A stretch of DNA of 64,000 bases from a virus (IMGVR_UViG_3300031722_000008:96541-160540); one strand, 5' to 3'; counted from the stretch's first letter, positions 3 to 22,371 are shown. Notes: a model not told the origin generated them from the letters alone. Made by a program: numbers and translations.

Positions 3-602
3 GGTGAATATAAATCCAAAAAAGAGCAAATGGAGAAAGTGGCATCATGTACCGATGTATCCGAAGAAGCTATAAAATTACTTGATGAAGCTATTGATAT
101 TAATGAAAAAATAAGCACAATTAAGAAAACATTAGATTCTCTTAATTCTTATAAAAAGAAGTCTGCATCAGCTAAAGAAATAATTGACAGGGTAAGCATA
201 GAAGATATTAGTGTTGCTATTGAGCAAATCGATGAGATTATATTATTGACAACTAATATTAAAAATATGAAAGATAGAAATGCCCGATTGAAAGAACTAC
301 TCAAAAAGAAATTTGAATTAGAGGAATTACCAAAAAGCGAAGATATTGATTCAGTTATTGAAAATTTAGATAAAGGAATAGAAATTCTAGAATCTCTATC
401 TAGAATAAAACCTGTTAATGATAAATATAAGAAAGAAATTTTAAGAAAAGAAAATGGAGAAAAGGTTATTGAAGATTTAGACAAAAAACATGATGACGTA
501 GTTGAAGAATACAAAAATGGATTACGTGAGTCAAAACGTTGCGAAGTATGTATGTCCGTAATGACAGAAGAACATATTCACAATATAGAAGAATATATGT
601 AG
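3..602 (+). CDS. SbcC/Rad50-like protein, N-terminal piece (5' truncated by window edge); coiled coil ending in CxxC zinc hook
   Basis: Frame is open from position 3 (GEYKSKKEQM...). Heptad-rich coiled coil ends RCEVCMSVMTEEH, like a Rad50 hook. A matching ABC C-terminal half lies at 5372-5974. Confidence 0.7.
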   Translation, partial: GEYKSKKEQMEKVASCTDVSEEAIKLLDEAIDINEKISTIKKTLDSLNSYKKKSASAKEIIDRVSIEDISVAIEQIDEIILLTTNIKNMKDRNARLKELLKKKFELEELPKSEDIDSVIENLDKGIEILESLSRIKPVNDKYKKEILRKENGEKVIEDLDKKHDDVVEEYKNGLRESKRCEVCMSVMTEEHIHNIEEYM

Positions 603-613
603 GAGGGTCAATT

Positions 614-3600
614 ATGGCATGCAAATTTTATCAGTTACACGATCATACAGAGAAAAGCTTAAATGATGGTATGATTAAAGTTAAAAAGCTTGCAAAGAAA
701 TTAAAAGAACAGGGCGTAGATAAATTTGCTGTTACTGAACATGGAGAAATGATGGATATGCCCGCAGCGTATTTAGCGCTTAAAGATGAAGATATCGAAC
801 TTATCGTTGGAATGGAAACATATGTTGCTCCAAGAAAAAGAAGTGATAAGGAAAAAAGCGAAGGTGATGATGCTAATTATCATCTAGTACTTCTTGCGGA
901 AAACAACGAAGGCTATGATAACCTTAAAATCCTTGCATCTGAAGCTGCACTGAACGGATTTTACTATAAGCCTAGAGTAGATAAGGAACTTCTTAGACAA
1001 TACCATAAGGGCATCATAGCATCAAGTGCTTGTCTTGGAGGAAGTATAAATCAATTCCTTTTAGAAGATAAATATGAAGAAGCTAAATTAGAGGCTCTTG
1101 AATATTTAGATATATTTGGTGAAGGGAATTTCTTCTTAGAACTTCAAAGGCATGGACTTAGAGAACAAGAGCAGATTGAGCCTATGATTCTTAGATTAAG
1201 TAGAGAAACTGGAATACCACTCATAGCAACTAATGATTGTCATTACCTAAATAAAGAAGATTGGGAAGCTCACGATATACTTATGGCAATTCAAGCAGGA
1301 ACAACTATTGATGATACTAAGAGAAAAATTTATACTTCTCATGAGTTTTATGTAAAGTCTCCCGAAGAAATGATTCATCTGTTTCGTGACGTACCCGAAG
1401 CTATAGAAAACACCGTAAGAATAGCAGATAGGTGTCACGTTGAATTAGAATTTGGAGTTAATAAAATACCACCATTCAAACTTCCAAATGGATACAAAGG
1501 CACGGAGAATGATTTTTTAAGGGAAATAGTTGAAGGCAATGCTAAAATAAAATATTCAGGAATATCAGAAGAAGTTCAAGAAAGAATAGATTTTGAACTT
1601 GAAGTAATTGAAAGAATGGGATATGTAAACTACTTCCTTATTAATTGGGACTTCTTTAGATTCTGTAGAGAGGGTACTTATGAAATAGAAGATGCTCCAA
1701 ATACTGATTGGGACCCAATACTAACAGGTCCTGGTAGAGGTTCGGGAGCTGGATCAATAGTTGCTTATTGTACTGATATTACTAAAATTGAACCACTCCA
1801 GTTCAATTTATTATTTGAAAGATTCTTATCGCCGGAAAGAGTATCAATGCCGGATATCGATAGTGATTTCGAAGATACTCGAAGACAAGAAGTTATTGAT
1901 TATGTTGTATATAAATATGGAAGAGAATGTATATCTCAAATAATAACTTTTGGAACACTAGCAGCGAGAGCAGTAATAAGAAGAGTGGGGAAAGCATTGG
2001 ATTATCCATACGCAGTATGTGACAAAATAGCAAAATCTATACCTGCAGAAGTTGGAATAACAATAGAAAAGGCACTGGCAGTAAATCAGTCACTTAGAAA
2101 AGCATATGATACTGATAAGAGTATAAAGCGCTTATTGGACTTCTCTATGCAATTAGAAGGTTTAGTTACTAGTTGTAGTACTCATGCGGCAGGAGTACTA
2201 ATAACTGATAAGAAAGGTGTTACAGCCCATGTTCCTTTATGGGAAAATAAAGGTGGAATTGTTGCTCAATTCTCTAAGGATTATATTGAGATGCTAGGAC
2301 TTCTTAAGATGGATTTCTTAGGACTTGGTACATTAGGTATTCTTGGTGATGCAAAAAGAATGATTAGAGCAAATCATGGAGTTAATATTGATTTTGATGA
2401 ATTATATAAACTACCAACAATGGAACCACTACAACTTATAAGGGATGGAAAGACTGAATGCTTATTCCAATTAAATGGAGCAGGTATGACAGCATTTATG
2501 AAAGAATTAAAGCCAAACAGTATAGAAGATATAATTCTAGGTATCTCTATGTACAGACCAGGACCTATGGCTGAAATACCAAAACTTCTATATAGTAAAA
2601 GAAATCCTAATAGTATCACATATGAGGTTGATGGACTTAAATATATTCTTGACCCTACTTATGGAAGTATTGTATATCAGGAACAATGTATGCAAATAGT
2701 TGTTGCGATAGCAGGATTCTCTAAGGCAGACAGCGATAACTTTAGGCGTATTATATCTAAGAAGAAATTAAAAGAAATGCCAAAACAACGTGAATGGTTC
2801 GTTCATGGAAGAAAGAAAGATGATTATGATTATGAAGGGCATCTTAGGCACTACAAAGCAGATATACTAGGAGGAGTAGCTTTAGGTCATAGCGAAGAGG
2901 CACTGAATAAGTTATTCGATAAGATGGTTGACTTCGCCGCTTATGCTTTCAATAAATCCCATGCTGCTGCTTATGCTTTTGTTGGATATTTAACTGCATG
3001 GTTTATGAAATATTATCCTGTAGAATTTATGGCTGCTAATCTTAATGCTGTTCAAAAGAATAGAGCCAAGATTGCGCGGTATATGAATTATGCAAGGAAA
3101 GAATTGAATCTCGAAATTTTAGAGCCTGATATAAATGAATCAGTAGAAAGATTTAAAGCTACAAAAGATGGAAAGATAATGTATACTCTATCAATAAAAG
3201 GAGCATCTATTGATTGTTTAAAGAGAATAGTCGAAGAAAGAGAAACTAATGGTAAATTCGAGAATCTTATCGATTTTATAGCTAGAACGAGAAATTTCCT
3301 AGATAAAAAGACTTATGAGGGATTAATAGGATCAGGAGCATTAAAATGTTTTGGAATAATAAAATCTCAACATTTAGCAGCACTTGATGATTTCTGGGAT
3401 GGATGCCTTAAGAAAACTAAAGATTCCGAAAAGAATGCTTTAAAGAAAAACAAAGACTTTAATTTCGAAGAAATATTGCTAGGAAAAATAGATGGATTAT
3501 TACCAAATATAAATGAATATCCTAAAGATATAGATTTAAGACTTGAAAAAGAGTTCCTAGGAATGTATCTTACTGATAATCCATTATACAGATATGCATA

Positions 3601-4165
3601 TACTATCAAGACTAGCAATAATTTTGAGTTATCTGATGTTGATTATGAAGTTGATGAAGAGACTGGAATTATAATGATGTCGAATGATTCAGTGAGAGAT
3701 AGACAGAAAGTTAGATTTGTAACCATACTAAATGATGTAGCTGAATTAACAACAAAGAAAAAGACTTTAATGGCAAGGCTAGAATTAGAGGATTTAACAG
3801 GAATAGCTGGAGCTTTAATTTGGCCATCAACGTATGATTCAATCAAAAGTAAATTAAAGAAAAATGAAATCTACATGTGTCATGGCTACTTAATGGTATC
3901 ATCAGATGAAGCACCAACCATTGTCGTTGAGGATATGGAACTTATGGAAGAAATGGTTACAGAAAGAGCAATCATTTCAGTTGATAGTAAAGAAGATGCT
4001 GTTGATATCATTAATTACATTAACGATACTGATATGGCAAAAGGTATGACTCCGGTTTATCTAGTTTACAATAATCTCCAAACATTACTAACTAGGAATT
4101 ATTGGATAAACTTAAATCATATGAATCAAAAATATGAAAATAAAATTAAAATAAAGATTTGGTAG
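614..4165 (+). CDS. dnaE: DNA polymerase III alpha subunit (DnaE-type)
   Basis: PHP motifs LHDHTEKSLNDG, FYYKPRVD and ATNDCHY; GPGRGSGAGS; LLFERFLSPERVSMPDIDSDF; FNKSHAAAY; C-terminal OB fold. Start moved to ATG 614 behind RBS AGGAGG. Confidence 0.97.
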   Translation: MACKFYQLHDHTEKSLNDGMIKVKKLAKKLKEQGVDKFAVTEHGEMMDMPAAYLALKDEDIELIVGMETYVAPRKRSDKEKSEGDDANYHLVLLAENNEGYDNLKILASEAALNGFYYKPRVDKELLRQYHKGIIASSACLGGSINQFLLEDKYEEAKLEALEYLDIFGEGNFFLELQRHGLREQEQIEPMILRLSRETGIPLIATNDCHYLNKEDWEAHDILMAIQAGTTIDDTKRKIYTSHEFYVKSPEEMIHLFRDVPEAIENTVRIADRCHVELEFGVNKIPPFKLPNGYKGTENDFLREIVEGNAKIKYSGISEEVQERIDFELEVIERMGYVNYFLINWDFFRFCREGTYEIEDAPNTDWDPILTGPGRGSGAGSIVAYCTDITKIEPLQFNLLFERFLSPERVSMPDIDSDFEDTRRQEVIDYVVYKYGRECISQIITFGTLAARAVIRRVGKALDYPYAVCDKIAKSIPAEVGITIEKALAVNQSLRKAYDTDKSIKRLLDFSMQLEGLVTSCSTHAAGVLITDKKGVTAHVPLWENKGGIVAQFSKDYIEMLGLLKMDFLGLGTLGILGDAKRMIRANHGVNIDFDELYKLPTMEPLQLIRDGKTECLFQLNGAGMTAFMKELKPNSIEDIILGISMYRPGPMAEIPKLLYSKRNPNSITYEVDGLKYILDPTYGSIVYQEQCMQIVVAIAGFSKADSDNFRRIISKKKLKEMPKQREWFVHGRKKDDYDYEGHLRHYKADILGGVALGHSEEALNKLFDKMVDFAAYAFNKSHAAAYAFVGYLTAWFMKYYPVEFMAANLNAVQKNRAKIARYMNYARKELNLEILEPDINESVERFKATKDGKIMYTLSIKGASIDCLKRIVEERETNGKFENLIDFIARTRNFLDKKTYEGLIGSGALKCFGIIKSQHLAALDDFWDGCLKKTKDSEKNALKKNKDFNFEEILLGKIDGLLPNINEYPKDIDLRLEKEFLGMYLTDNPLYRYAYTIKTSNNFELSDVDYEVDEETGIIMMSNDSVRDRQKVRFVTILNDVAELTTKKKTLMARLELEDLTGIAGALIWPSTYDSIKSKLKKNEIYMCHGYLMVSSDEAPTIVVEDMELMEEMVTERAIISVDSKEDAVDIINYINDTDMAKGMTPVYLVYNNLQTLLTRNYWINLNHMNQKYENKIKIKIW

Positions 4166-4485: not shown

Positions 4486-5394
4486 ATGAAAAGAGGATGG
4501 AGTGATTTACAAGAAGAAATATTAAGAGATATATGTGATATAGATTTTCTAGTTCCAATGACTGTTATATGTTTTTTGGTTCGAAAATCAGAAACATCTA
4601 TCAGATTAAAATTGAAAGAGTTAGGACTTAAACGAGCAATATCAGTATGGTCAAAATCAGATGATAAATATATAGTTGAAAATTATCCAAATAAAAATAT
4701 AATGCTAGGAACTATGAGTATTAAGCTTGGCATGTCAGAGAATGCTATTCATATAAGAGCTTCAAGATTAGGAATTAAGAGGGGAATATCAGATTTAGAT
4801 CAGTATCTGATAGATAATTATGGAAAGGAAGATTGTATTCCTAAGGAAATTGCTAGTAAATTTTGCGTGTCATTATCTCATGTTTATAATCGAGCAGCGG
4901 AGTTGAAATTAGTAACACCTCATGAATATGGAGAAACAACTACATCAAAGTATAATGAAATCACCCAAAGATATAGCAAGGATAATACAGTAGCCCTTGC
5001 TATATCTTTGGGTGTATCTGAATATACAGTAAGAAGGATTGCAAGTAAAGAAAAAATAAGAAAAGCAAAGAAAATTAAGAAACAAAACAAAAAACCTAAA
5101 GTTAAACCTAGATGGACAAAAGAACAAGAACTTTTTCTTAAAGAAAATTATTACAAAATGACATCTAATGATATGATGTCAATATTTCATAAATCATCTT
5201 CATCAATAAATAGTAAACTTAGGCATATGGGATTGCGAGATGGTAGCCTAAAAATATATTGTATTGGATCCATTAAGTTTACTTATATTACCGAGGAAGA
5301 AAAAAGAAGAAAATATGAATATGTTACAATGTATCTACAATTATTAAATCAAAACAAAAGGGGAGATTATTATGTCATCAGAAAAGCTAGCTAA
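4486..5394 (+). CDS. multi-repeat Myb/HTH-like DNA-binding protein
   Basis: Repeated W[ST]x(E/D)xxxLxxNY...S..SI..(K/R)...LGL units (WSDLQEEILR, WSKSDDKYIVENY, WTKEQELFLKENY); basic protein. Confidence 0.65.
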   Translation: MKRGWSDLQEEILRDICDIDFLVPMTVICFLVRKSETSIRLKLKELGLKRAISVWSKSDDKYIVENYPNKNIMLGTMSIKLGMSENAIHIRASRLGIKRGISDLDQYLIDNYGKEDCIPKEIASKFCVSLSHVYNRAAELKLVTPHEYGETTTSKYNEITQRYSKDNTVALAISLGVSEYTVRRIASKEKIRKAKKIKKQNKKPKVKPRWTKEQELFLKENYYKMTSNDMMSIFHKSSSSINSKLRHMGLRDGSLKIYCIGSIKFTYITEEEKRRKYEYVTMYLQLLNQNKRGDYYVIRKAS

Positions 5395-5974
5395 ATATAT
5401 AAGTGATATGAGAACTGATTTAGCAATAAAACAAAGCAAAAAATCAGAATTAGAAAAGAAACAAGTAGGTATAGAGCTTAATATAAAAAATTTAAATATA
5501 GACGTTCTAGAAGAAACTGTAATAGTGTTAAAGAAGTTATCTAAAACTCAGCGTGATTCCGCGAAACTAAGATTAGAGGAGTTAGCTACAGAAGCATTGC
5601 AATATTCTATGAATGATACAAGAAGAGTAGAAATAAGGATAAATGATACATTAAAAAGACAACAAGCTTATGTATGGCTAGTTGATGATGTAACAGGGCA
5701 TGAAACAGACCCATATGAAGATAATGGTGGTGGAGTTATAGATATTTTAGGTATTGGATTACTTATAATATCTCTACAATCAGCTGAACCACCAATAGAC
5801 GGACCAGTACTTATCGATGAACCTTTTAAAATGGTATCCGAGGAATTTATTCCTGCTCTAGCAAACTTTATCAGAAAAATTTCTGATGATTTTGGAAGAC
5901 AAATAATAGTAGTAACTCATAATAAATATCTAGCAAATACTTTTGATACAAAGATTGATTTCAATCTAATATAA
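5372..5974 (+). CDS. SbcC/Rad50-like ABC ATPase, C-terminal half
   Basis: Coiled coil, then signature-like DNGGG, Walker B VLIDEPF, D-loop region and H-loop IIVVTH; no Walker A. Confidence 0.8.
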   Translation: MSSEKLAKYISDMRTDLAIKQSKKSELEKKQVGIELNIKNLNIDVLEETVIVLKKLSKTQRDSAKLRLEELATEALQYSMNDTRRVEIRINDTLKRQQAYVWLVDDVTGHETDPYEDNGGGVIDILGIGLLIISLQSAEPPIDGPVLIDEPFKMVSEEFIPALANFIRKISDDFGRQIIVVTHNKYLANTFDTKIDFNLI

Positions 5975-8870: not shown

Positions 8871-8886
8871 GTATAAGATATTAAAG
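8871..8886 (+). promoter_or_regulatory. GTATAAGATATTAAAG motif, copy 2
   Basis: Identical 16-mer upstream of the 9000-14471 gene cluster. Confidence 0.6.
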
Positions 8887-8905: not shown

Positions 8906-8980
8906 ATTTAACAACAGGAATGTTGTTAAATATGTCCTTAGAGATAAGGGTTTATATTCCTTTGTCTCTTAATTTTATTT
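8906..8980 (+). promoter_or_regulatory. two-hairpin leader; second hairpin is terminator-like
   Basis: ATTTAACAACA-ggaa-TGTTGTTAAAT (8906-8931); AGAGATAAGGG/CCTTTGTCTCT (8940-8969) followed by a T-rich tract. Confidence 0.55.
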
Positions 8981-8999: not shown

Positions 9000-9944
9000 A
9001 TGATAATTAATAATGAAAACTTCGGAGAAGTTGTAGCAAAAATGTTAAGGGCGGCATCAGAATATCACAAGGCAGAGAGATTTGATACTTGTGGTATTAT
9101 TTTTGACAAAGATGATAACTCATTAAAACTAATCTCAGTTTGGTTCTTTGTTAGAGTTACAAATGTAAAGATTGAAATTGATATTCCTAGAGGAAAGCCA
9201 TTTTATAATGTTTTAGGAAAAGTATGGACAGAAATTCCTTATGAGAAACCAGTTGAATATTACATGGAAAAAAGAGCTGAAAGTTATAACTTCGTAGGAA
9301 GAACAGAATACTATGCAAATAATATATTAAATATTATCAACAAGGAAACTGAGAAAGTATTGGATTTAAGAGCAAGATATGTATTTGTTCAAGGATTTTT
9401 ACCTCAAGGCTGTGCAGCAATAACTTTCAAAGAAGAAAATGGAAAGCCAGTATTTAAAGCGCCTAAGATACCAAAGAAATTTGTCATTGATGAAAATTCA
9501 GCAATTCCTGAAAAATTTGTTCAACCTGGGATTACTTATGCATGTACATTAAATGATTGCGGAGATACTGTAACTCTTGATGTAATAACAAAATTCGGAA
9601 AAACTAGATCAGGTATGTTCGTTTCAGAAGTTAAGTATGATAGTAAATGCCTACCTAGATTAAATAATTTAGAAATAATTCACCCTGAACTAACTGTATG
9701 TTCTAATATATTAGAAACATCAGATGAAGAAATTAATATGCCACCAATACATCTAGGTGCTATGTTATTGTATGATTTGCTTAAAATACTTTTAATTTGC
9801 AAAACATCTAAATTCAACCTACATTATCAAGAAAAAATAAATGATGATATATGGATAGAATCTGTACCAGAAGATGATGATGACGCAAAAGTATCTATAT
9901 TCTTCCCTCCTTATGATTACTATAAAAATATTCAAAGAGGATAA
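9000..9944 (+). CDS. hypothetical protein, possibly a divergent DnaN (beta-clamp)-like fold
   Basis: N-terminus MIINNENFGEVVAKMLRA...GIIFDKDDNSLKLIS and C-terminus IHLGAMLLYDLLKIL...KFNLHY...IWIES...KVSIFFP follow the beta/alpha pattern of DnaN domains I and III. By eye only. Confidence 0.4.
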   Translation: MIINNENFGEVVAKMLRAASEYHKAERFDTCGIIFDKDDNSLKLISVWFFVRVTNVKIEIDIPRGKPFYNVLGKVWTEIPYEKPVEYYMEKRAESYNFVGRTEYYANNILNIINKETEKVLDLRARYVFVQGFLPQGCAAITFKEENGKPVFKAPKIPKKFVIDENSAIPEKFVQPGITYACTLNDCGDTVTLDVITKFGKTRSGMFVSEVKYDSKCLPRLNNLEIIHPELTVCSNILETSDEEINMPPIHLGAMLLYDLLKILLICKTSKFNLHYQEKINDDIWIESVPEDDDDAKVSIFFPPYDYYKNIQRG

Positions 9945-9948
9945 ATAA

Positions 9949-10494
9949 ATGCAAGAGGATTACCTAACAATGATTATAGCTAAAGACAAAAACTTATGGC
10001 CTAATCCTGAGAATATAGATGTTGAAGATATAGATAAATCCATATTTAACTACTTGGAAGAAAGAGAGCATTTAAATACTCCTAGGAATCAAGAGAAATT
10101 CTCAGAAACAGTTAACGATTTTTATCACATGGCACAAGAAGAATTTTTCGAAGAGAACGAAGAATACTTGATTCCTTCGCCACAAATAATTAGCGATATG
10201 ATAGATGAAGAAAACATCAATATCATATCGCTATTTGTATTAGATACAGAAAAAAGAAATAGCGAGGATAGGATAGAGAATATAATTAATATTTATATAA
10301 AAGAAATATCCTCTCAACTATTATATTCTGTCATAGAAGCATTAGATACTCTAGGACTACCCTTCTCCGATAAAGATCATCCAAATGATAAGGCAGTATC
10401 GGAGGTGAGAAATAAATGCTTTTATGACCCTTATCAAATAAGAATGTTTGGAGATGAAATATATGACAGAAGGAAAATTGATAGAAATTGTTAG
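9949..10494 (+). CDS. acidic QxxMF-family paralog 1
   Basis: VIEALDTLGLPF ... FYDPYQIRMFGDEI. Confidence 0.7.
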   Translation: MQEDYLTMIIAKDKNLWPNPENIDVEDIDKSIFNYLEEREHLNTPRNQEKFSETVNDFYHMAQEEFFEENEEYLIPSPQIISDMIDEENINIISLFVLDTEKRNSEDRIENIINIYIKEISSQLLYSVIEALDTLGLPFSDKDHPNDKAVSEVRNKCFYDPYQIRMFGDEIYDRRKIDRNC

Positions 10495-11086
10495 CGATAA
10501 ATTACCTGATGGAGTTCAGGATTTTGACAATATAGAAAATAGAATGGTTTTGTCATGGACTGGTGATATGCCAGAAAATATGAAAGAAGTAAATGAATAT
10601 ATAATAGGGGATATATATAAGGAAGAGTGCATAAATAAACAAGGTATCCCTGAATTCGATGATCTTTTGGAAAGTGTTGATATTCTTAATTCTGAATGTA
10701 TGGCAGAGATAGCTCTCATACAAGTAGTTCAAGAATATAATGAACAAGGTATTGATATTGGAGATGTATCGGAAGAGAAACTCTCAGAAGATACAGCAGA
10801 GAAGGAAGCTGGAGTCCTAGACTTCTATAGTTATAATGGAATGATTGATACTAAACAAGAAATATTTAATTATGCTGAAGAAAAAGGTATGAGTTTCATG
10901 ATATCAAATCATACAGAGGAGTATGATAATTTTACATGGGGAATTGAAATGTCAGAAGAATCACAACTAGACATTATAGTTAATGGACCTCAAATACCAA
11001 TGTTTCCAGAATTAGCTGTAGATGAATGTGAAAATGATTTTTGTAGATACGGTGGTTTCTTTCTACATGTATCGGAGGCTGTATAA
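10463..11086 (+). CDS. acidic QxxMF-family paralog 2
   Basis: GIPEFDDL ... IFNYAEEKGMSF ... IVNGPQIPMFPEL. Start placed at ATG 10463 behind GGAG. Confidence 0.7.
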   Translation: MTEGKLIEIVSDKLPDGVQDFDNIENRMVLSWTGDMPENMKEVNEYIIGDIYKEECINKQGIPEFDDLLESVDILNSECMAEIALIQVVQEYNEQGIDIGDVSEEKLSEDTAEKEAGVLDFYSYNGMIDTKQEIFNYAEEKGMSFMISNHTEEYDNFTWGIEMSEESQLDIIVNGPQIPMFPELAVDECENDFCRYGGFFLHVSEAV

Positions 11087-11791
11087 ATGAACGATATTAT
11101 TATAAGATCTGACGAAGATGAAATTGTAGACAAAAGACTAGCTGAATTAACAAATCTACTTATCGTGGATAGTGATGAGTCTTCAGAAAAATATGTCAAG
11201 GAATTAATTGAGGAATTAAATAATATACCAAAATCAGGAATACCATGCTTAAGTGATATTCTTCAACCAATGATAGATAATAACGATACTGTTATTGATA
11301 TTATCATGAAAACCCTAATAGTAAATGATAGAGTTGATATGCCAACAGATTGTGATAGAGGGGCTACAGACAGATCATCATGTGCAGAATGCGAAGAACT
11401 CTGCGAGTGCTATGAAGATTTAGATTACGAGATAAGACTTGATGAATTTCCACAATGTGATGATACTCACTTGGCATACTTATTATATTACATTCTTGTG
11501 AATACAGGTATGAGTATGATTATGGAAAAGGATGATTACAATGCGTTCCCAGACTTCTGTATGCATTTTGATTACGATAATGAGGGAATTTTATCAGACT
11601 ACTTCACTGGAACAGAAAATAAAAACAAGGTAATAGTAAATCATGCTCAACAAATGATGTTCTCTGAAATATTTATGGAAGAGAATAATCAGAATGGGAG
11701 TTGCTATTGTTATGGGCAAAACTTCGCAATAATGTTTGATAATTACAATATACAGGAAGAAAGATTAGCCTTAAAGGAAGGAGGTAAATAA
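11087..11791 (+). CDS. acidic QxxMF-family paralog 3, with Cys-rich insert
   Basis: GIPCLSDI ... CAECEELCEC ... YILVNTGMSM ... IVNHAQQMMFSEI. Confidence 0.7.
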   Translation: MNDIIIRSDEDEIVDKRLAELTNLLIVDSDESSEKYVKELIEELNNIPKSGIPCLSDILQPMIDNNDTVIDIIMKTLIVNDRVDMPTDCDRGATDRSSCAECEELCECYEDLDYEIRLDEFPQCDDTHLAYLLYYILVNTGMSMIMEKDDYNAFPDFCMHFDYDNEGILSDYFTGTENKNKVIVNHAQQMMFSEIFMEENNQNGSCYCYGQNFAIMFDNYNIQEERLALKEGGK

Positions 11792-12417
11792 TGTCAATAC
11801 AATTAAGAGAGGATATTTTCTCAGAATATATAGATGAAAAAAATCCAGAAATAATATATACAGCGAATCCAAATTCTTTACTTATGATAAAGGATATCAT
11901 TCTGGAACAACTTAATAACAGAGGAGAGGCTTCGTTAGAATGGATAATAAGTGATATTCATTTTGGTAATGCAAGAGTATTTGAAAATATAGCAGCTAAA
12001 GGTTTTGATACAGGGAAATTTGATATAGGTAACTTTGATAATTATGGTGATGGAATTACTGAAATGGCTGATGATATAGAACAATGGTATTTTGTTGAAG
12101 ATGAATTAACAGAATTAGAAAACCTAATATATGAGTCAGCTAAACAATTTGACTTACCTGTATATATGACAGCAGAGCAGGTAGATGAATACCCAACTTT
12201 TATAAGAAGATTCTCTGAAGAAAATTCTTATCTGGACTGCATAGCTAAAGAAAAAGAGATAAAGGTCAATGCATTCCATGCACAAATTCCAATGTTTGAT
12301 GATCTATTCGATAACTGCGGAAGTTGTTTTTATGGAAGAGAAAATGTGCTATTAATTGATGAATACAATAAAAATAGGAATTATGGATTAATGGAGGGTA
12401 GCGATGAAAGAAGATAA
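11791..12417 (+). CDS. acidic QxxMF-family paralog 4
   Basis: IYESAKQFDLPV ... VNAFHAQIPMFDDL. Confidence 0.7.
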   Translation: MSIQLREDIFSEYIDEKNPEIIYTANPNSLLMIKDIILEQLNNRGEASLEWIISDIHFGNARVFENIAAKGFDTGKFDIGNFDNYGDGITEMADDIEQWYFVEDELTELENLIYESAKQFDLPVYMTAEQVDEYPTFIRRFSEENSYLDCIAKEKEIKVNAFHAQIPMFDDLFDNCGSCFYGRENVLLIDEYNKNRNYGLMEGSDERR

Positions 12418-13090
12418 ATCTCTCCGGATAATAAATCCAGACATCGATATGCTTGAAATGCAATCAGAAATTATAGGCATAAATGAAGATAATTTCGAAA
12501 GAGATAAGAACACTATATTGGAAATGTATAAATCGGAATATACGAAATATAAGGATCGCGCAAACATACCTCTTTTTTCTGATATAGAAAATTCTGTTCT
12601 CGCTTATAATTATGACAAGTGTTATGAAATATCAGTTATTGAATTTGAAACATTTGATAAAGCAGAAGTTATGAATACATTTTATAGCTCTGCTTATTGT
12701 TCCACAATGGACATAAATGATAGAATACAGGCGATACTAGATCAGAAGACAGGTAATATGATGAATGATATAGGGTGGTCACATTCCGAAGCTATAAGAA
12801 TGTGTATAAGGAATTCACTAAATGAATTGGGTGTTATTTATGAAGATAATGATCCTTGTAATCCATTCCTCCGAAATATATTTGCAGATTTTAATATTTT
12901 CAGAATAGTAGCTAATAATGCTCAAATAGTAATGTTTCCGGACATACATAGACAGGAGTATATGTATGATGCGGACTTAATCAATGATACTTTAGATGAT
13001 ATTACAAACTATGTCATAGAAAGAAGAACACAGAGCGCAATAAAAGATAGGTTGCTTGGTTCTGGGGGTGATAAAAATGTCCCAAAGTAA
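12404..13090 (+). CDS. acidic QxxMF-family paralog 5
   Basis: NIPLFSDI ... IRNSLNELGVIY ... VANNAQIVMFPDI. Confidence 0.7.
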   Translation: MKEDKSLRIINPDIDMLEMQSEIIGINEDNFERDKNTILEMYKSEYTKYKDRANIPLFSDIENSVLAYNYDKCYEISVIEFETFDKAEVMNTFYSSAYCSTMDINDRIQAILDQKTGNMMNDIGWSHSEAIRMCIRNSLNELGVIYEDNDPCNPFLRNIFADFNIFRIVANNAQIVMFPDIHRQEYMYDADLINDTLDDITNYVIERRTQSAIKDRLLGSGGDKNVPK

Positions 13091-13436
13091 AGAGATAACT
13101 AAATCTATGCTCCGAAACAGAGGACTAATTATGCAAGATACGGAAAACAATACTTTTGTTGAAATCGTATCATCAAATTATATAGTTTGTATAAATCGAA
13201 GAATAAAAAAGGGACAAACTATAGTTCCTGAATATTACGAAATCAGCGACGAGTGCTTGGAGTTCATTGCTGACCATGGAATAAAAACTGTTACATGGAA
13301 CGGCATGATATTAAATGCTATGTCAGCTCTAGATTTATCATTAAAAGATGTACTTGAAGATGAAGGTTTTATTTTTGAATATAACCGAGAAATAGTGAAT
13401 CCTTATCAGCAGATTATGTTCGAGGATTTAAATTAA
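13077..13436 (+). CDS. QxxMF-family paralog 6
   Basis: IVPEYYEI ... LKDVLEDEGFIF ... IVNPYQQIMFEDLN*. Start placed at ATG 13077 behind GGGGGTG. Confidence 0.7.
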   Translation: MSQSKEITKSMLRNRGLIMQDTENNTFVEIVSSNYIVCINRRIKKGQTIVPEYYEISDECLEFIADHGIKTVTWNGMILNAMSALDLSLKDVLEDEGFIFEYNREIVNPYQQIMFEDLN

Positions 13437-13450
13437 GGAAGGTGTAAATA

Positions 13451-13825
13451 ATGAGTAAAAGCATTATAGAAATAGAAGATAGTCAGCTTCAAAAAGAAGC
13501 TAGATGGGAGGACGTAGAAAAGATTATACTCAACACATACAATGAACTTTTTGATAAGGATAAGAAAGAACCGAGCATAAGCAGAGTATTCGATGAAATT
13601 AAATATAAGTTTGAAACTGAAGCATATGACATTATCTACGGAATATCAGCAGAAGACATTACAGAAGAAATGATAATGGTATGTCTTACGAAAAAGGGCT
13701 GTGTATTCACATGGTGCGGAACAGTATGTTGTGAAGCGCAACAAGTGATGTTTGGGGAGATATACGAACAATTAGAAGGAGATTTCATCAGCTACAATAA
13801 TAATATCATAGGTCTTCATGAGTGA
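13451..13825 (+). CDS. acidic QxxMF-family paralog 7
   Basis: EPSISRV ... IMVCLTKKGCVF ... VCCEAQQVMFGEI. Confidence 0.7.
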   Translation: MSKSIIEIEDSQLQKEARWEDVEKIILNTYNELFDKDKKEPSISRVFDEIKYKFETEAYDIIYGISAEDITEEMIMVCLTKKGCVFTWCGTVCCEAQQVMFGEIYEQLEGDFISYNNNIIGLHE

Positions 13826-14471
13826 TATAGATAAAAGTGATGTTGTATTTAAATCTCTGTCATGTTTTAAATCCATGTTAAAATATGACAGAGTTAATCC
13901 CCAAATATTTCTTCATAATAAATCAGCTTATATGCTCGGAGAAAAAACGAAAGGAAAGATAGAATTTTTAAATAGGAGCTTTGAAACTTTAGTGGGTATA
14001 CCATTCAATAAAGGTTTCGAGTATTCAGAAAATATAACAAACAAGATTTTAAGTGAGAATATCAATATAATTAATAAGTTAGCCAGGACTTATTGCGAAA
14101 CTCTATTTTATATTGATAAGGTAAAGTTAATTAAATTCATTGACGATAATTATAATTCTTTAGCAAAGTTAAATAAAATGAAATTAACTATAACAACTGT
14201 GCCTCATATAAGGTTTAATTTTAAGCCTATAAAAAAATCTACTTCAGTGTTTGAGAGTGAATATATTATTTCAGAACCTGTAAGAGTGAGTCCAAACTTT
14301 AGAGTAAAAGATGAAGAGATTGTTTTAAATTCTCTTCTTTTTTATGAAGTTATAAATAATGAACTTTTTTCACAAATAATAAAAATGGAGATAAACAAAG
14401 AAAAGAAATTTATAAGATTAGCTTGTGTTAATGATAATGTAAAAGTTAAGTTTATAATTAACCAAAGATAA
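13818..14471 (+). CDS. hypothetical protein, possibly a short divergent DnaN-like clamp subunit
   Basis: C-terminal half FYIDKVKLIKFID...KMKLTI...EEIVLNSLLFYEVIN...IIKMEIN...FIRLA...VKFIINQR parallels DnaN domain III. By eye only. Confidence 0.4.
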   Translation: MSDIDKSDVVFKSLSCFKSMLKYDRVNPQIFLHNKSAYMLGEKTKGKIEFLNRSFETLVGIPFNKGFEYSENITNKILSENINIINKLARTYCETLFYIDKVKLIKFIDDNYNSLAKLNKMKLTITTVPHIRFNFKPIKKSTSVFESEYIISEPVRVSPNFRVKDEEIVLNSLLFYEVINNELFSQIIKMEINKEKKFIRLACVNDNVKVKFIINQR

Positions 14472-14552
14472 AGTCTAGAAATTGCTTAACGTGTTCGGCA
14501 AATAATGGTATCATTAACATTGAACACTAAAAAGAGATGGGGGATTGGCACA

Positions 14553-17500
14553 ATGGATAAACTAGAATGGTACGAGAGCGTTGAAAATAAGATCAATGAA
14601 GATATTGATTTGTTTTATGGTGAGTTTTATAGCGGAGCAAAACCTAAAAAGATAGGACCTGATAGCTATAGAATTAATCCATGTCCAGTATGTGGACATT
14701 CTAATAGTTGCACATTAACAGGAAATACTGTTCATTGTTTCAGTGGTGAATGTGGATGGAAAGGAACACATATTACGGCATGGTATGAATATGCAAAAGA
14801 AAAGCTCAATTTGTCACTTTACGAGGCGGTGGCGAAGTTAGAAAAATTCACAGGATATAAGTTTCCAGCTGGAACAAAAGAAGAAATAGAAGCTTATGAG
14901 AAGCATCAGAAACAACAAGCAATTTTGAGAATTTCAGAAGATTTTTACCACAAACAGCTTTTAATATGTAATTTGACTTTTCCTTTCAAAGATAAGAGAT
15001 ACACACCACTTGATTATATGTTACAAGTAAGAAAAAGAAAGATAGAAACCTTGAAGGATTTTAAAGTTGGATTTGCTATTAATTACTTTGGATTAAGAAG
15101 TGAATTATTGGAACAAGGATTTACGAAAGAAGAAATTAAAGAAGGAAAAGCATGGCAACCAGAAGGAACTTTTGTGTTCTTCTATAGGCATCCATTAACA
15201 AAGGATATTGTAAGGACAAATATTAAAAATCCATTTGGGTCAAAATCTAAAGAAAAAAATGAGTTAGGTCAAAGTATAGATGGCGATGTTATTGTTGGAT
15301 ATTCTACTGGAAGTAAGTTTATGTATTTTCCTCCGAATTTCTCCTTCGATAAAGATATTACTATAGTTGAAGGGGAGCATGATGTATTTGCTGCCTATGA
15401 AAATGGATTTAATGTAGCTGGTGTTGGAGGACAAATAGAAAGAGAATACCAATTATCTGTATTGGATAAGGCAAAAGAAAATATAACCTTTCATACGATG
15501 TATGATAATGATGATGCTGGAAGTAAATATACTGAATTCACTAATGAATATTTTGCTGACAGGCCAGTAAAGAAAATAAAATATGATGAAGCATTCAATG
15601 ATCCTGATGAATATTTCAGAGAGTGCGAAAATCACAAATCCCTTGAAGAATTATTTGAATTTGCAGAAACATTAACTACTGACAAATATAAGATTCGCAG
15701 ACAAGGTAACTTATGGACTGTAGCAACGAGAGAAAGAAAACTTGAATTTACCATGAAAGGCAAAAATGATAAAGGTTCTTTCAGTGGAAATGCTGTATAT
15801 TATTATAATGGTCTATTAAGCGATAGAGATGATAATATACAACTCGTAAAATGCAAAGCTAAGATAAAGCCATTAAACTTTTATTTATATGACCATATAG
15901 AAGAGTATTTTAATAGTAATTTAGATAAGAAAAGCATCGATGAATTAATATTGATATATTCAATGTCAGCGAAGAAAGATGAGATAATTAAAAGATTAGC
16001 CGAAATGTTATTTGAGTCAGAAAATGATGAGTCTATTATAAATAACATGAAAGTTCAATTAAGTAAGCATGTAACGAATCATGAGAATGTTGTTGATGAA
16101 ATACTTAAAGAGGTTAATGATATACAGAATAAGGCTAATACAACATCGTTATCGAACATACCTAAAATGCGTGTTGGACAATACTACAATGTGAGAAACG
16201 GTGATGCTTATATGTATTTTACTTATGTAAAAATCGATGGTGATATAAAAAGAAAATTACCTTTCCTGCTTAGGAATGATGGAACACTAATAAGACTCGA
16301 TCTATTAAAAAGAAAGGATTCTCAATGCTTGCTTCTTATTGATAATAAGTATGAACTTCCATGGGAAATAAATGATGCTATTCTAGAACTTAATGAGTGT
16401 TGCTTGACTCAAGAATGGGTAGAGAAATATAAAGATGGCAAAATATCAGATAGTGAATTAGAACCTTCAATACTTATAAAGAGAATAGAGGGTTATATTA
16501 GGAAATTTTATTATACTAATGATTCAAATATCTACAAGGTGCTATCTCTCTATATATATTCAACCTACTCATATGAATTATTTGCACAAATACCATATCT
16601 TTATTTAAATGGTTCTAAGGGTTCAGGTAAGTCAATTCTAGATGAATGCATTAGATTATTATCCTTTAATTCAAAGATGGCTGTAGACATAACTGAAGCA
16701 GCATTATTCAGAACACTATCTGTTGAAGGAGGAGTATTAATACTTGATGAGCAGGAAAACTTAAATTCTAAAAATGCGAGAACTACTGATAGTGGTATGG
16801 CAGCAATACTGAAAGGTGGCTACGCAAGAAGTGGTGCAGTATATAGAGTTAACAATGAAAAAGGGGGCATAGTAGAGAAATATACTATCTACGGACCTAA
16901 GGTTATATCCAACATAATGGGAATGGATGATGTAATTGAGGATAGATGTATAATAATTGAAACATATGCCCTTAAATTGACTAAAGAAACTAAAATGGAA
17001 GATCCTAAATATTACGCGGAAGAAAGATTAGATGAAATAAGAGAACTCACAAGTAAATGTGCGATCTCTGCCCTGAAAAATTTCAAGACGCTATATGATA
17101 TATATAATGGTAACTTATTCGAAACAGGGAATGCACGTTTATCGCAAATACTAACTCCTATATTAGCTGTAGCTAAATTGGTTGATTTGAGAGAAAAAGA
17201 AAATGCATTATCTACTAATCCAGATATAAAAGATTATATCGGAGAATATGAAAGATCATTAATGGATTATTTTGTTATACTGAATGAGCTTAAAAAGAAT
17301 ACTGCTCAAAGTACTCCAGAGGGTATAATAAAATCTTCTGTATCTACAGTTGCAAAAGAACTCTGGGGATTAGTTCCACCTCACAATATAGAATTTATAG
17401 ATTCGTCATCACATAAATATACCGAAGCTATAAAATGCGATAAGGAGCAAGGCTGGTTCGAAATCAATGTACTTCACTTTAAATGTTTCATCGAAGAAGT

Positions 17501-17765
17501 TAAACCTGGAGAAACAGCTTATGCTAGATATATTCCTAAATGGATTAAGACTGTTTTCAAAATCGATGCATGCGATATAAAAAGAAAAGCTGTGCATATT
17601 GAAAATGAAGATTTGATGAAAGAATTTAAAGGTAATGTAAAACCTAAGGTAAACTTTTATAGGTTTTATTTTAAAGACTATATAAACATGGATGAAGCAT
17701 TTTTCGGCAACAGCAAAGAAAATGATTCAGCTATTAAGACCGATAAAGGGGCAGAACTATTTTAG
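14553..17765 (+). CDS. primase-helicase fusion (Zn finger + TOPRIM + C-terminal P-loop ATPase)
   Basis: CPVCGH...HCFSGEC; IVEGEHD, YDNDDAG, DPDEY; YLNGSKGSGKS and VLILDEQE. Start moved to ATG 14553 behind a GGGG RBS. Confidence 0.88.
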   Translation: MDKLEWYESVENKINEDIDLFYGEFYSGAKPKKIGPDSYRINPCPVCGHSNSCTLTGNTVHCFSGECGWKGTHITAWYEYAKEKLNLSLYEAVAKLEKFTGYKFPAGTKEEIEAYEKHQKQQAILRISEDFYHKQLLICNLTFPFKDKRYTPLDYMLQVRKRKIETLKDFKVGFAINYFGLRSELLEQGFTKEEIKEGKAWQPEGTFVFFYRHPLTKDIVRTNIKNPFGSKSKEKNELGQSIDGDVIVGYSTGSKFMYFPPNFSFDKDITIVEGEHDVFAAYENGFNVAGVGGQIEREYQLSVLDKAKENITFHTMYDNDDAGSKYTEFTNEYFADRPVKKIKYDEAFNDPDEYFRECENHKSLEELFEFAETLTTDKYKIRRQGNLWTVATRERKLEFTMKGKNDKGSFSGNAVYYYNGLLSDRDDNIQLVKCKAKIKPLNFYLYDHIEEYFNSNLDKKSIDELILIYSMSAKKDEIIKRLAEMLFESENDESIINNMKVQLSKHVTNHENVVDEILKEVNDIQNKANTTSLSNIPKMRVGQYYNVRNGDAYMYFTYVKIDGDIKRKLPFLLRNDGTLIRLDLLKRKDSQCLLLIDNKYELPWEINDAILELNECCLTQEWVEKYKDGKISDSELEPSILIKRIEGYIRKFYYTNDSNIYKVLSLYIYSTYSYELFAQIPYLYLNGSKGSGKSILDECIRLLSFNSKMAVDITEAALFRTLSVEGGVLILDEQENLNSKNARTTDSGMAAILKGGYARSGAVYRVNNEKGGIVEKYTIYGPKVISNIMGMDDVIEDRCIIIETYALKLTKETKMEDPKYYAEERLDEIRELTSKCAISALKNFKTLYDIYNGNLFETGNARLSQILTPILAVAKLVDLREKENALSTNPDIKDYIGEYERSLMDYFVILNELKKNTAQSTPEGIIKSSVSTVAKELWGLVPPHNIEFIDSSSHKYTEAIKCDKEQGWFEINVLHFKCFIEEVKPGETAYARYIPKWIKTVFKIDACDIKRKAVHIENEDLMKEFKGNVKPKVNFYRFYFKDYINMDEAFFGNSKENDSAIKTDKGAELF

Positions 17766-17800: not shown

Positions 17801-17816
17801 GTATAAGATATTAAAG
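17801..17816 (+). promoter_or_regulatory. GTATAAGATATTAAAG motif, copy 3
   Basis: Identical 16-mer just after a terminator and before a two-gene unit. Confidence 0.6.
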
Positions 17817-18398: not shown

Positions 18399-19205
18399 AT
18401 GCTAATGATGTTTGGCTCTGCTTTAAGGAGGGCACCATTTGAAAGAGCAATGCCTTTCAATGACAGCGATTTGATGATACTTGTAAATCCAGATTATGGA
18501 TTTAGATTGTGTAATATTACTACTGAAGATGGCGAAAAATTTGGGATTAAAAATTTCATGATATCAGAAACTGAGGTTTCTGGACAAAAGCCAAAAGATA
18601 TATTTGGGAAAAAGCCATTCGAAGAAAGAGTTAAAGAATTTGGTGAAATCTTTAATGGGAGAGTTGAAAGATTTTTTGAAACTGAGAAGAGCGACTATAT
18701 CTTCTTTGATTTAGAGGAACAAAAATATCTAAGAAAATTAATGTCCAAAAAAGGATTGAGTTGCTCTGTTGAGATATATAAGTATCATAAAAATAAACCA
18801 CCAGAAAAAATAGAGTATCTTGATTTGCCTTATGAAGAAGCAATCATGATAACTAAATTTTTATCATCGTGCAAAGTTAGAACTGTTTTAAATTGCAGAG
18901 ATTATTATTATATGAACAAGGCCAATCATGAAAAAAGTAGGGAAAGGCGTTCAAAATATAGTAATTTTAATAATAAAAGGGATAGTGAAATGGAAATTCT
19001 ATTCAATAGGTACAAGCAGTTAAGGGATTTGACAAGCAAAGAAAGAGTTGATAAGTATTTCAAGGCACTTACTGTTAAGTATCATCCTGACAGAGAGGGA
19101 GGTGACGCAGAAATATGCGCAACCATCAGAGAAGATTTTGGAAATATTAAGGAAGGCAGATGGTATATAAATCTTAAGGATAAAGAGGATGGGGGCGAAA
19201 AATAA
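18399..19205 (+). CDS. protein with C-terminal J-domain-like (HPD) module
   Basis: VDKYFKALTVKYHPDREGGDAEICATIREDF. Confidence 0.7.
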   Translation: MLMMFGSALRRAPFERAMPFNDSDLMILVNPDYGFRLCNITTEDGEKFGIKNFMISETEVSGQKPKDIFGKKPFEERVKEFGEIFNGRVERFFETEKSDYIFFDLEEQKYLRKLMSKKGLSCSVEIYKYHKNKPPEKIEYLDLPYEEAIMITKFLSSCKVRTVLNCRDYYYMNKANHEKSRERRSKYSNFNNKRDSEMEILFNRYKQLRDLTSKERVDKYFKALTVKYHPDREGGDAEICATIREDFGNIKEGRWYINLKDKEDGGEK

Positions 19206-20388: not shown

Positions 20389-22371
20389 TTGTTAGTACTT
20401 AAAGTCGAGGGGAAATTCAAGATACTGAAAATAGAATGCTCAGCTGGCATGGCCAGCGACGTTCTATTTTCGCTTTCTGAAATCCCAAAAGAAGTTGATA
20501 CAACAAATAACAATGTCTGTACAATACTTATCGACATGAAATATATCGATAAGTGTAACACTACTCTTAATAAATATAAGGGCAGTGTGAAATTTGATAG
20601 TAGTTTTCTTGAATGGAAGAAAAAATTCCATAAGAAAACACCAATACTAATCAGAAGCGCAGTTATAAATACCAAAATATATAGAAGTCCTGATTTCGAA
20701 GTACCACATCAAGCAATAGAAGATGCAACGAAATACTTTTTTAAACCTGCAGTAAATATGAAATCTTATAAAGACAAGAAGTGGGATGGATATGTAAAAT
20801 TATACGAGAGAAGATTCTATAAGTTCCCAACAGGACTAATAGACAGAGTTTTAGAGGTATTTGATAAAGAAGAAATACCATATACATTAGAACATGTGCA
20901 TGATGAGAGTCCACCTAAAGAATTTGATTGGGAACCAAAAGAACTATTTGTTCCATCGGAAGACCAATTAGAAGCTGTTGATATTTGCATGAAATATGGA
21001 AGAGGAGTAGTTAAGGCAGCCACAGGATTTGGTAAAACTGCAATGCTTGCGAGATACTTAACTGCAAGTCATGGTGTTCCTACCCTCTTTATAGCCAATA
21101 AGAAGATACTTTTAGATGATGCAGCCAATGACTTTAGAAATGGAATAGAGGGTCTCCTTGAGGGTGATATAGCTCAAATTAAGGATGGTAAGTTTGGTGA
21201 TATTAATTTGAGAAAGAAAGAAAGTTTTACTCAATATGATTTAGATAATGCACTGTCAGATAAAAAGATAATCGTAGCAACAATACAAAGTCTACATGCA
21301 AGAGTGGAGGATACAAAAACTAGGGGTGCATTAATTCATTGGCTTCATAATACTTGTAAGTTTGTGATGATTGATGAGAGCCAAGCTATCAATGATAAGC
21401 AATGGCAAGATGTATTGAATGAAGTAAGAGCGCCATATAGAATTGCCCTATCTGCTACACCAAGACGTACAGATGGAGCTACATTACTCATAGCAGCACA
21501 ATCAGGACCACTAATATATGAAACTACTGCTGATGAACAAATAAGAAAAGGTAGACTCTGTGATTTAAAAATTGATTGTTGGCCATTCGATCATAAGCTA
21601 TATAACGACAATGACAAGGAACTTAACTATGCAGAAGTGTATACTCAATGTATAGTTGAGAATGAAGAGAGAAATAGATTCTTAATTGAGAGAACTTTAG
21701 AAATGTTAGATGAGGAAAGGCAAGTATTAATGTTAGTCCTTAGGATAGAACATGGACATATACTAAAAGAAATGCTACTAGAGAAAGGATTGAGTTTAGA
21801 TGAAGTTAACTTCGTATGGGGGGATACACCAGATAAGGTTAGAACAAAAGCCGTTGAAGACTTTAGAAAAGGGAAATACAAAATACTTATCGGAAGCACC
21901 GTTGCTGATGCCGGACTCAATATCCCCTCCATCTCTGGAGTCATACTCTGCGGAGCTGGAAATTCTGACATCACGCATATACAACGGATTGGGCGTGGAT
22001 CAAGAACTTTTGACTACCTCAAAAACTGGGGCTTCGAACCTAAATTTATCCATGATGCAAATGGAGAAAAGATTACGAGAATCATTGATCCAATTGATAT
22101 TAACATCGCCTTTTTTAAGAAGCAATCTAAAAATAGATACTATAATGCCTGTGAAGAGTTCGGAGCCGATAGAGTCCATCTGATAGGTGTTGACGCGTCT
22201 ATATTTAGATACAGAAGTAAAAAGACGGAAAGCAAAAAAGATATCGATGACCAAAAAGCATTAGAAGATATGTTTAATGCATTCAGTGGCGTAGATAATG
22301 AGGAAACCGAGGAAAATACTATGAGTCAAAATGATGCAGTTGATAATTTCATAAGTATATTCAAAAGGTAG
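20389..22371 (+). CDS. superfamily 2 DNA helicase (UvsW/XPB-like)
   Basis: AATGFGKT, MIDESQ, ALSATP, DAGLNIP, QRIGRGSR. Confidence 0.92.
   Translation: MLVLKVEGKFKILKIECSAGMASDVLFSLSEIPKEVDTTNNNVCTILIDMKYIDKCNTTLNKYKGSVKFDSSFLEWKKKFHKKTPILIRSAVINTKIYRSPDFEVPHQAIEDATKYFFKPAVNMKSYKDKKWDGYVKLYERRFYKFPTGLIDRVLEVFDKEEIPYTLEHVHDESPPKEFDWEPKELFVPSEDQLEAVDICMKYGRGVVKAATGFGKTAMLARYLTASHGVPTLFIANKKILLDDAANDFRNGIEGLLEGDIAQIKDGKFGDINLRKKESFTQYDLDNALSDKKIIVATIQSLHARVEDTKTRGALIHWLHNTCKFVMIDESQAINDKQWQDVLNEVRAPYRIALSATPRRTDGATLLIAAQSGPLIYETTADEQIRKGRLCDLKIDCWPFDHKLYNDNDKELNYAEVYTQCIVENEERNRFLIERTLEMLDEERQVLMLVLRIEHGHILKEMLLEKGLSLDEVNFVWGDTPDKVRTKAVEDFRKGKYKILIGSTVADAGLNIPSISGVILCGAGNSDITHIQRIGRGSRTFDYLKNWGFEPKFIHDANGEKITRIIDPIDINIAFFKKQSKNRYYNACEEFGADRVHLIGVDASIFRYRSKKTESKKDIDDQKALEDMFNAFSGVDNEETEENTMSQNDAVDNFISIFKR

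Follow-up and report, generated by a model that had tools for sequence, protein, structure and literature searches.

Phage sliding clamps, clamp-binding peptides and heteromeric clamps have each been described already. The alpha subunit of Escherichia coli DNA polymerase III carries the internal clamp-binding motif QADMF, and the bacterial consensus of this motif is QL[SD]LF (PMC3201878). Viral clamp homologues that have a raised isoelectric point (pI) and are encoded in loaderless genomes have been predicted to bind DNA directly, like UL42 and UL44 (Kazlauskas and Venclovas, PMC3201878). The clients of a clamp are normally unrelated enzymes encoded by scattered genes. This work concerns a locus in which a hub and a whole family of candidate clients are encoded together and apparently co-evolve. 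This cassette of nine genes occupies positions 9000-14471 of the virus sequence IMGVR_UViG_3300031722_000008:96541-160540, a stretch of 64,000 nucleotides called here the window. It consists of an acidic protein of 314 residues (clamp A), seven small acidic proteins that share the motif QxxMF (the array, genes 1 to 7) and a basic protein of 217 residues (clamp B). No description was found in the literature of two sequence-orphan clamps bracketing a co-evolving array of acidic clamp-docking proteins in a loaderless phage with a DnaE polymerase.

The bacterial beta clamp resembles this system by the consensus of the five-residue motif, by the binding site, which is modelled here at the same cleft and C-terminal tail, and by the DnaE polymerase encoded near the cassette. 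Its subunits have three domains, however, whereas those of the cassette have two, and clamp A contains an inserted beta-barrel. The cassette proteins have moreover no match in Pfam, NCBIfam or the PDB sequences, no loader was found, the clients are seven orphan acidic paralogues instead of diverse enzymes, and DnaE is devoid of the motif. In phages T4 and RB69, small acidic proteins dock to the gp45 clamp via short hydrophobic peptides, a likeness to the docking modelled for the present array. These phages have in contrast a single clamp gene and the gp44/62 loader; their clients (gp43, gp33, gp55 and ligase) are unrelated and are not arrayed beside the clamp, and the genome studied here contains no Pfam match to gp45. 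The herpesvirus factors UL42, UL44, BMRF1 and PF-8 have a clamp fold and a basic DNA-binding face and need no loader, and clamp B may be likened to them by its fold, its pI and the absence of a loader. Their partner polymerase is of the B family, whereas the one encoded here belongs to the C family, and a second, acidic clamp is present here. The heterotrimeric PCNA of Sulfolobus and the 9-1-1 complex are built, as might be the case here, from several distinct two-domain clamp subunits per genome, with three subunit types there against two here, and no dedicated loader was found in the present genome.

Two clamp folds and the acidic array between them

The initial annotation, established by eye, had proposed a DNA-clamp fold for both proteins flanking the array, and structure prediction bears this out. 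The AlphaFold2 model of clamp A (pLDDT 88.7, 17 homologues in the alignment) retrieved sliding clamps only when compared to the PDB with Foldseek (probability 1.0). When 48,161 chains were scanned without a filter, clamps or viral processivity factors occupied all of ranks 1-38. BFVD and the ESM Atlas also support the clamp-fold assignment. The model of clamp A comprises tandem domains, each made of two beta-alpha-beta-beta-beta units, and a small beta-barrel inserted at about residues 134-200. This insert holds the near-invariant F143 and the invariant Y180 of the family and is adjoined, in the closer clade, by the segment KFGKTRSG (198-205). The N-terminus of clamp A had been thought to follow domain I of DnaN; the protein aligns instead to domains II and III of beta or to a whole PCNA monomer. 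The AlphaFold model of clamp B (pLDDT 81.0, 8 homologues in the alignment) likewise matched nothing but clamps in the PDB with Foldseek (probability 1.0). Its matches in BFVD are phage beta clamps, viral PCNAs and factors of 216-217 aa from Bacillus phages, one of which is named 'PolIII beta-like processivity factor'.

The C-terminal pattern that had been recognized in both flanking proteins has a structural counterpart. In each model, the stretches in question form the last beta-alpha-beta-beta-beta unit (E250-253/H254-266/E271-277/E284-288/E297-302 in clamp A, E167-171/H172-179/E187-193/E198-205/E208-215 in clamp B), and the same two stretches give the top hhalign alignment between the two families, which is non-significant. 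Both proteins are free of QxxMF, as had been stated. They differ in charge, clamp A being acidic in the close loci (pI 5.0-6.0) and clamp B basic in every locus, with a pI of 9.39 in the window and of 7.65-9.06 in the relatives.

These are two orphan clamp families, neither of which is visible to sequence methods. Nothing significant was obtained in Pfam, PHROGs or NCBIfam for clamp A, clamp B or the seven array proteins; the profiles of both clamp families found no clamp among the PDB sequences, and none of 48 clamp A relatives matches a clamp model of Pfam (0/48). A search of 1.84 billion representatives placed the relatives of clamp A in 49 clusters at 50% identity, with lengths of about 300-400 aa except for two short entries. 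Searches of 50,697 phage records with the cassette (blastn) and with clamp A (tblastn) gave no match, and a pattern scan of IMG/VR with clamp A detected no related locus.

The motif Q..MF is present in 7/7 array proteins, 4-50 residues from the C-terminus, for an expectation of about 0.01 per protein. Among the open reading frames (ORFs) of at least 50 aa in the remainder of the 160,540-bp genome, it occurs in one only. This eighth ORF (genome 8030-10210) was rejected as a client, as it encodes an NrdD-like glycyl-radical reductase and its motif is taken as a chance occurrence. The enzyme, a candidate anaerobic ribonucleotide reductase, has a zinc ribbon in its C-terminal part and ends in a glycyl-radical motif. 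QxxMF has the layout of a beta-clamp-binding motif, with Q at position 1, an aliphatic residue at position 4 and F at position 5, and it lies within the extended consensus N-x-[AP]-Q-[ILQM]-x-M-F-x-[DE]-[LI]-[FY].

The array proteins combine a low pI (4.05-4.55) with a negative net charge of -8 to -38; they are strongly acidic and constitute a single paralogous family, as demonstrated by profile-profile comparison of the positional orthologue groups over 90-190 columns. Match probabilities reach 90-99% among genes 2-5, 97% between genes 5 and 7 and 96% between genes 6 and 7; gene 1 is marginal. The only invariant columns among 24 aligned paralogues, which share 14-29% identity, are the Q, M and F of the motif. 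The seven proteins had been presented as seven ligands: all of them do carry a motif of the clamp-binding type, and they are one acidic family rather than a set of diverse clients. Each array position has its own orthologue in the relatives. At 23-64% identity, the array orthologues diverge more quickly than clamp A, for which the range is 49-68%. The profile of the family retrieved, in a wider search, members of the same clade only. In the ESM Atlas, the stored model of gene 5 is poor (pLDDT 0.35) and gave no usable hits, and gene 6 is without a stored model. In genes 2-4, an element C-x(1-3)-C-x-YG follows 7-14 residues after QxxMF (CENDFCRYGG, CYCYGQ and CGSCFYGR) and could be a small metal-binding knuckle. 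The motif is often preceded by His or Cys (NHAQ, NHCQ).

Modelled docking on clamp A and conservation of the locus

The complex of clamp A, clamp B and array gene 6 was modelled with a separate alignment for each protein, and the client was scored. The three docking runs gave ipSAE values of 0.81, 0.76 and 0.58 (median 0.76), while none of the three controls exceeded 0.00. In this job the client depended on clamp A: a score of 0.00 was also obtained when clamp A alone was exchanged and the client and clamp B were kept. This control is the sole information of this job on a contact between clamp B and the client. At this ipSAE mark, 58/80 solved complexes and 2/110 mismatched pairs pass, a calibration which is only rough for three chains and self-supplied alignments. 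At least 54% of the contacts are common to the runs, and the pLDDT of the partner is at least 68.

In these models, residues 108-119 of the client (NPYQQIMFEDLN) contact residues 45-50, 88, 92, 121-126, 251-256, 281-283 and 301-310 of clamp A. The parts contacted are a strand and a helix of the first domain, the connector between the domains, and the strand and tail at the C-terminus; in PCNA and beta, this modelled surface corresponds to the canonical site for clients. Clamp A has, in silico, a hydrophobic client pocket at its inter-domain region and C-terminal tail. The predicted interface includes R126 and H251, which are among the most conserved residues of the family (44/48 and 43/48 sequences respectively), and the conserved tail residue Q312 (39/48) lies just outside it. 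The docking result supports a binding of the motif to clamp A, at the level of a structural model.

The linkage of the flanking genes to the array, which had been proposed as a decisive point, holds in the relatives, very distant ones included. The order of clamp A, 6-8 acidic genes, basic clamp B and Toprim primase is kept wherever enough DNA is available, down to about 20% identity. It is complete in six loci (L001, L004, L005, L007, L009 and L012), and four partial ones (L002, L006, L011 and L013) exhibit the same order. The basic protein of L009 and L012 is a homologue of clamp B, with E values of 4e-7 and 1e-5 in a small database. In L001 (8921-9671), the array contains eight genes, as the gene 7 type is duplicated (L001_g7 and L001_g8 both match W_g7 of the window).

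The flavour of the motif is specific to each lineage. It is QxxMF in the present clade (44/44 in six loci), QNxL[FL] in L012 and L013 (8/8) and Q[SA]x[LI]F in L011 (5/5). Uniformity within a genome is the rule, with the exception of L009, where a diverged and mixed set combines INPxLL and QIPLF. The motif is restricted, in each locus, to the genes of the array. Such a concerted change across all the paralogues of a lineage is what a single common receptor would be expected to produce.

Proposed function of the module and competing explanations

The whole genome contains no match to domains 1, 2 and 3 of DnaN (PF00712/PF02767/PF02768) or to the N-terminal domain of gp45 (PF02916), so that the earlier statement that no other clamp is visible in the window can be extended to the genome as far as the Pfam clamp models are concerned. 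No clamp loader was detected in the genome with PF00004 (AAA) or PF06144 (delta). A match to DNA_pol3_delta2 (PF13177) at genome 10368-10514 was rejected as a loader: it scores 14 bits, below threshold, has a TGA within it and lies among short ORFs. A very divergent loader could exist, or that of the host could be used. In DnaE, the position of the internal clamp-binding motif (about 960-985, by alignment to Taq alpha) reads KDFNFEE and not QxxLF or QADMF. The DnaE relatives conserve [FI][ND]FxE at this position, where Taq alpha has GLVGLF. The DnaE of a human-gut phage (MT835501.1, L008 16847-20308), which is about 45% identical, keeps QMTLF, and no such array is found in this phage within 17-20 kb on either side of dnaE. 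With the DnaE motif lost and no enzyme of known function in the genome carrying QxxMF, the pocket of clamp A appears to be reserved for the paralogue family, and the polymerase may rely on another peptide, perhaps with the other clamp.

On balance, the cassette probably encodes a phage-specific sliding-clamp module together with a family of proteins that dock on it. Clamp A would be the docking hub, and the QxxMF peptides of the seven paralogues would insert into a pocket formed by its first domain, its inter-domain connector and its C-terminal tail, as in PCNA and beta. Clamp B most likely binds to DNA itself; it would be a factor for processivity or anchoring that needs no loader, comparable to UL42/UL44, and may act alone or paired with clamp A. 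This proposal relies on its raised pI and on the lack of a recognisable loader in the genome, two traits that clamp B shares with factors of this type. Its basic charge would suit a ring subunit no better than a DNA-binding processivity factor independent of a loader. The whole module probably has its place at the replication fork of the phage, alongside the primase-helicase and DnaE, as suggested by the gene order, which places the primase-helicase in an apparently shared transcription unit and DnaE nearby.

The role of the paralogues is more conjectural. Our best guess is that they are exchangeable accessory or anti-host factors tethered to the clamp. Their charge density, their fast evolution and the stable retention of seven copies are compatible with DNA mimics or other anti-host factors, and with replication-coupled regulators; each of these two specific roles is given a low probability at most. 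If true, either would represent a new strategy in large phages. A bolder version appears improbable: the acidic clamp, with its OB/S1-like barrel, and its basic partner on DNA would form a loader-independent hub, a mobile platform carrying along the replicating phage DNA 6-8 DNA-mimic-like paralogues that co-evolve with the pocket and neutralise DNA-binding proteins of host defence or repair, as a clamp-tethered shield against the host. Whatever the role of the paralogues, this cassette offers a compact natural system for the diversification of a clamp pocket and its docking peptides.

Several points weigh against the idea of a clamp module with its own docked family. Neither clamp family has a sequence-level link to DnaN, PCNA or gp45. 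An acidic, loaderless clamp has no obvious way onto DNA, and no enzyme of known function encoded by the genome displays QxxMF; with the canonical motif of DnaE lost as well, it is not evident that the polymerase is served by clamp A at all. No lead to what the paralogues do came from Pfam, PHROGs or NCBIfam, where they have no match, or from the ESM Atlas, which gave no usable hit. The docking is an in silico result obtained for one client with shallow alignments (6-17 rows), and its score may partly reflect a likeness to the many solved clamp-peptide complexes. The motif could also be in part a structural element of the paralogue fold, since the seven proteins are paralogues, the Cys-Tyr-Gly element follows it in genes 2-4 and its distance from the C-terminus reaches 50 residues.

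Taken to its limit, this last idea makes QxxMF a mere conserved core segment of the fold and the clamp-like genes neighbours that the paralogues never contact. The homology of the seven proteins over 90-190 columns would agree with it, as would the conserved hydrophobic-x-N stretch before the motif and the Cys-x-x-Cys-x-YG that comes after it in genes 2-4. It nevertheless seems very improbable, in view of a motif that is the only invariant element at 14-29% identity, that in genes 1 and 6 is found at the very C-terminal end, that changes flavour in concert across the paralogues of a lineage and that is docked confidently, with controls at 0.00, into a canonical pocket in the models. The same modelled contact (0.76 for docking on clamp A, 0.00 for the controls) argues against another target, the beta clamp of the host, which the paralogues would block or hijack, so as to stop host replication or recruit it, while the phage clamps act as insensitive replacements serving the phage DnaE. 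This explanation is not without merit: Q-[LIM]-x-M-F is very near to the bacterial QL[SD]LF and to the QADMF of E. coli alpha (PMC3201878), phage proteins that bind the host beta are known, a Gp168-beta-clamp complex (PDB 7evp) is among the fold matches, and the phage DnaE is without the canonical motif while a gut-phage DnaE about 45% identical keeps QMTLF. Position 4 of the motif is however fixed in each lineage (M in 44/44 here, L elsewhere) and the array is always syntenic with clamp A, which fits a co-evolution with a phage receptor. Seven stably kept positional orthologues also exceed the need of an inhibitor, and a host target is judged improbable.

An arrangement compatible with the favoured module is that clamps A and B are the subunits of one heteromeric clamp, either a ring resembling PCNA1-2-3 or 9-1-1 or a C-shaped heterodimer resembling UL44. 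This clamp would be the processivity factor of DnaE, and the paralogues would be regulators that compete or alternate at the client site of clamp A. A pair of distinct two-domain clamp subunits is indeed always encoded in one unit; their secondary-structure order is identical, down to a broken third helix; an acidic and a basic subunit would favour pairing, and chains of heterotrimeric PCNA and 9-1-1 are among the fold matches. The hhalign comparison of the two family profiles reveals on the other hand no significant similarity, two types of two-domain subunits would give a symmetric six-domain ring only at a 2:1 stoichiometry, and no loader was found for a closed ring. This arrangement is regarded as rather unlikely, although it is given a higher probability than the other alternatives. 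A coupling of transcription to replication, in the style of T4 gp45-gp33/gp55 or of Mu MuC and the host beta, would turn the paralogues into clamp-docked co-activators or specificity factors for the phage RNA polymerase. A resemblance to gp33 of T4, which is small and acidic and binds gp45 by means of a C-terminal peptide, counts in favour of such a coupling. Clamp-dependent late transcription is documented in Mu (PMC12867686). The paralogues are however without similarity to sigma, gp33, gp55 or Mor/MuC, the cassette is located in the replication module, and seven factors are many for such a role; little probability is accorded to it.

Layout of the cassette and genomic setting

The features discussed in this work are collected in the table below.

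Coordinates of the cassette and of associated features in the window
Feature	Position	Strand	Remark
DnaE-type Pol III alpha, 1208 aa	539-4165	+	Pfam PHP, core, finger, HhH, OB domains
15-bp motif GTATAAGATATTAAA, candidate phage promoter	8164-8178, 8871-8885, 17801-17815	+	exact copies
Hairpin, 11 pairs, then T-rich run	8940..8969	+	between GTATAAGATATTAAA copy and first start codon
Clamp A, 314 aa, pI 5.4	9000..9944	+	two-domain clamp fold, small beta-barrel insert
Array gene 1, 181 aa, pI 4.35, QIRMF at residue 163	9949..10494	+	hhalign 61% to gene 6, marginal
Array gene 2, 202-212 aa by start choice, pI 4.05, net charge -38, QIPMF	10448..11086	+	paralogue of genes 3-5, probability 97-98%
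Array gene 3, 234 aa, pI 4.05, QQMMF	11087..11791	+	probability 99.4% to gene 4
Array gene 4, 208 aa, pI 4.2, QIPMF	11791..12417	+	
Array gene 5, 228 aa, pI 4.47, QIVMF	12404..13090	+	probability 96.8% to gene 7
Array gene 6, 119-126 aa, pI 4.55, QQIMF 4 residues from C-terminus; docking client	13056..13436	+	
Array gene 7, 124 aa, pI 4.38, QQVMF	13451..13825	+	probability 96.3% to gene 6
Clamp B, 217 aa, basic, pI 9.39	13818..14471	+	compact two-domain sliding-clamp fold
Toprim-domain protein, 1086 aa, primase-helicase-like, last gene of unit	14505-17765	+	Pfam Toprim_2, E 6e-7
DEAD/ResIII helicase	20389-22371	+	replication module

According to the ORF listing, the nine genes of the cassette are tightly packed or overlapping on the + strand. 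The cassette had been placed directly upstream of the primase-helicase and close to dnaE, in agreement with the coordinates: clamp B ends at 14471, the Toprim gene starts at 14505 and dnaE lies at 539-4165. The position of the Toprim gene is identical in all relatives.

The 15-bp motif GTATAAGATATTAAA exists in three exact copies only, each immediately upstream of a gene block. The copy at 8871 heads the cassette and the next one, at 17801, is found just 3' of the Toprim gene. The nine cassette genes and the Toprim gene are bracketed in this way by two copies, which fits a single transcription unit of ten genes, GTATAAGATATTAAA being the putative promoter. A scan for sigma-70 promoters gave 64 sites against 65.5 in shuffled sequence, hence no excess. 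The hairpin that precedes clamp A may serve as a leader structure, as an attenuator or as the terminator of the unit before it.

The window is the terminal part of a complete virus record of 160,540 bp with direct terminal repeats, and its G+C content is 28-37% in 2-kb windows. The replication module corresponds to the + strand region 1-26,000. The DNA of the cassette is found mainly in peat metagenomes, and no RNA sequencing run is listed for it.

The dnaE gene is intact in the window and altered in several relatives. It is interrupted or split by an intein with a LAGLIDADG domain in L002 (3390-8189), by a free-standing LAGLIDADG ORF in L006 (1602-6613) and by an HNH-repeat ORF in L012 (2826-7586). 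In the window, dnaE is flanked by pieces of ABC/SMC-type ATPases, with weak matches to AAA_15 and AAA_21, and to AAA_23 in the relatives. The upstream piece is a gene of 436 aa (genome 95832-97142, window 3-602). The downstream piece (4486-5974) is an overlapping pair of 302 aa and 200 aa, which may be one split or frameshifted gene. Beyond the Toprim gene, a protein of 268 aa (18399-19205) gives a sub-threshold match to the J-domain (DnaJ) at residues 211-238, and a counterpart of about 259 aa is conserved downstream of the primase in the relatives.

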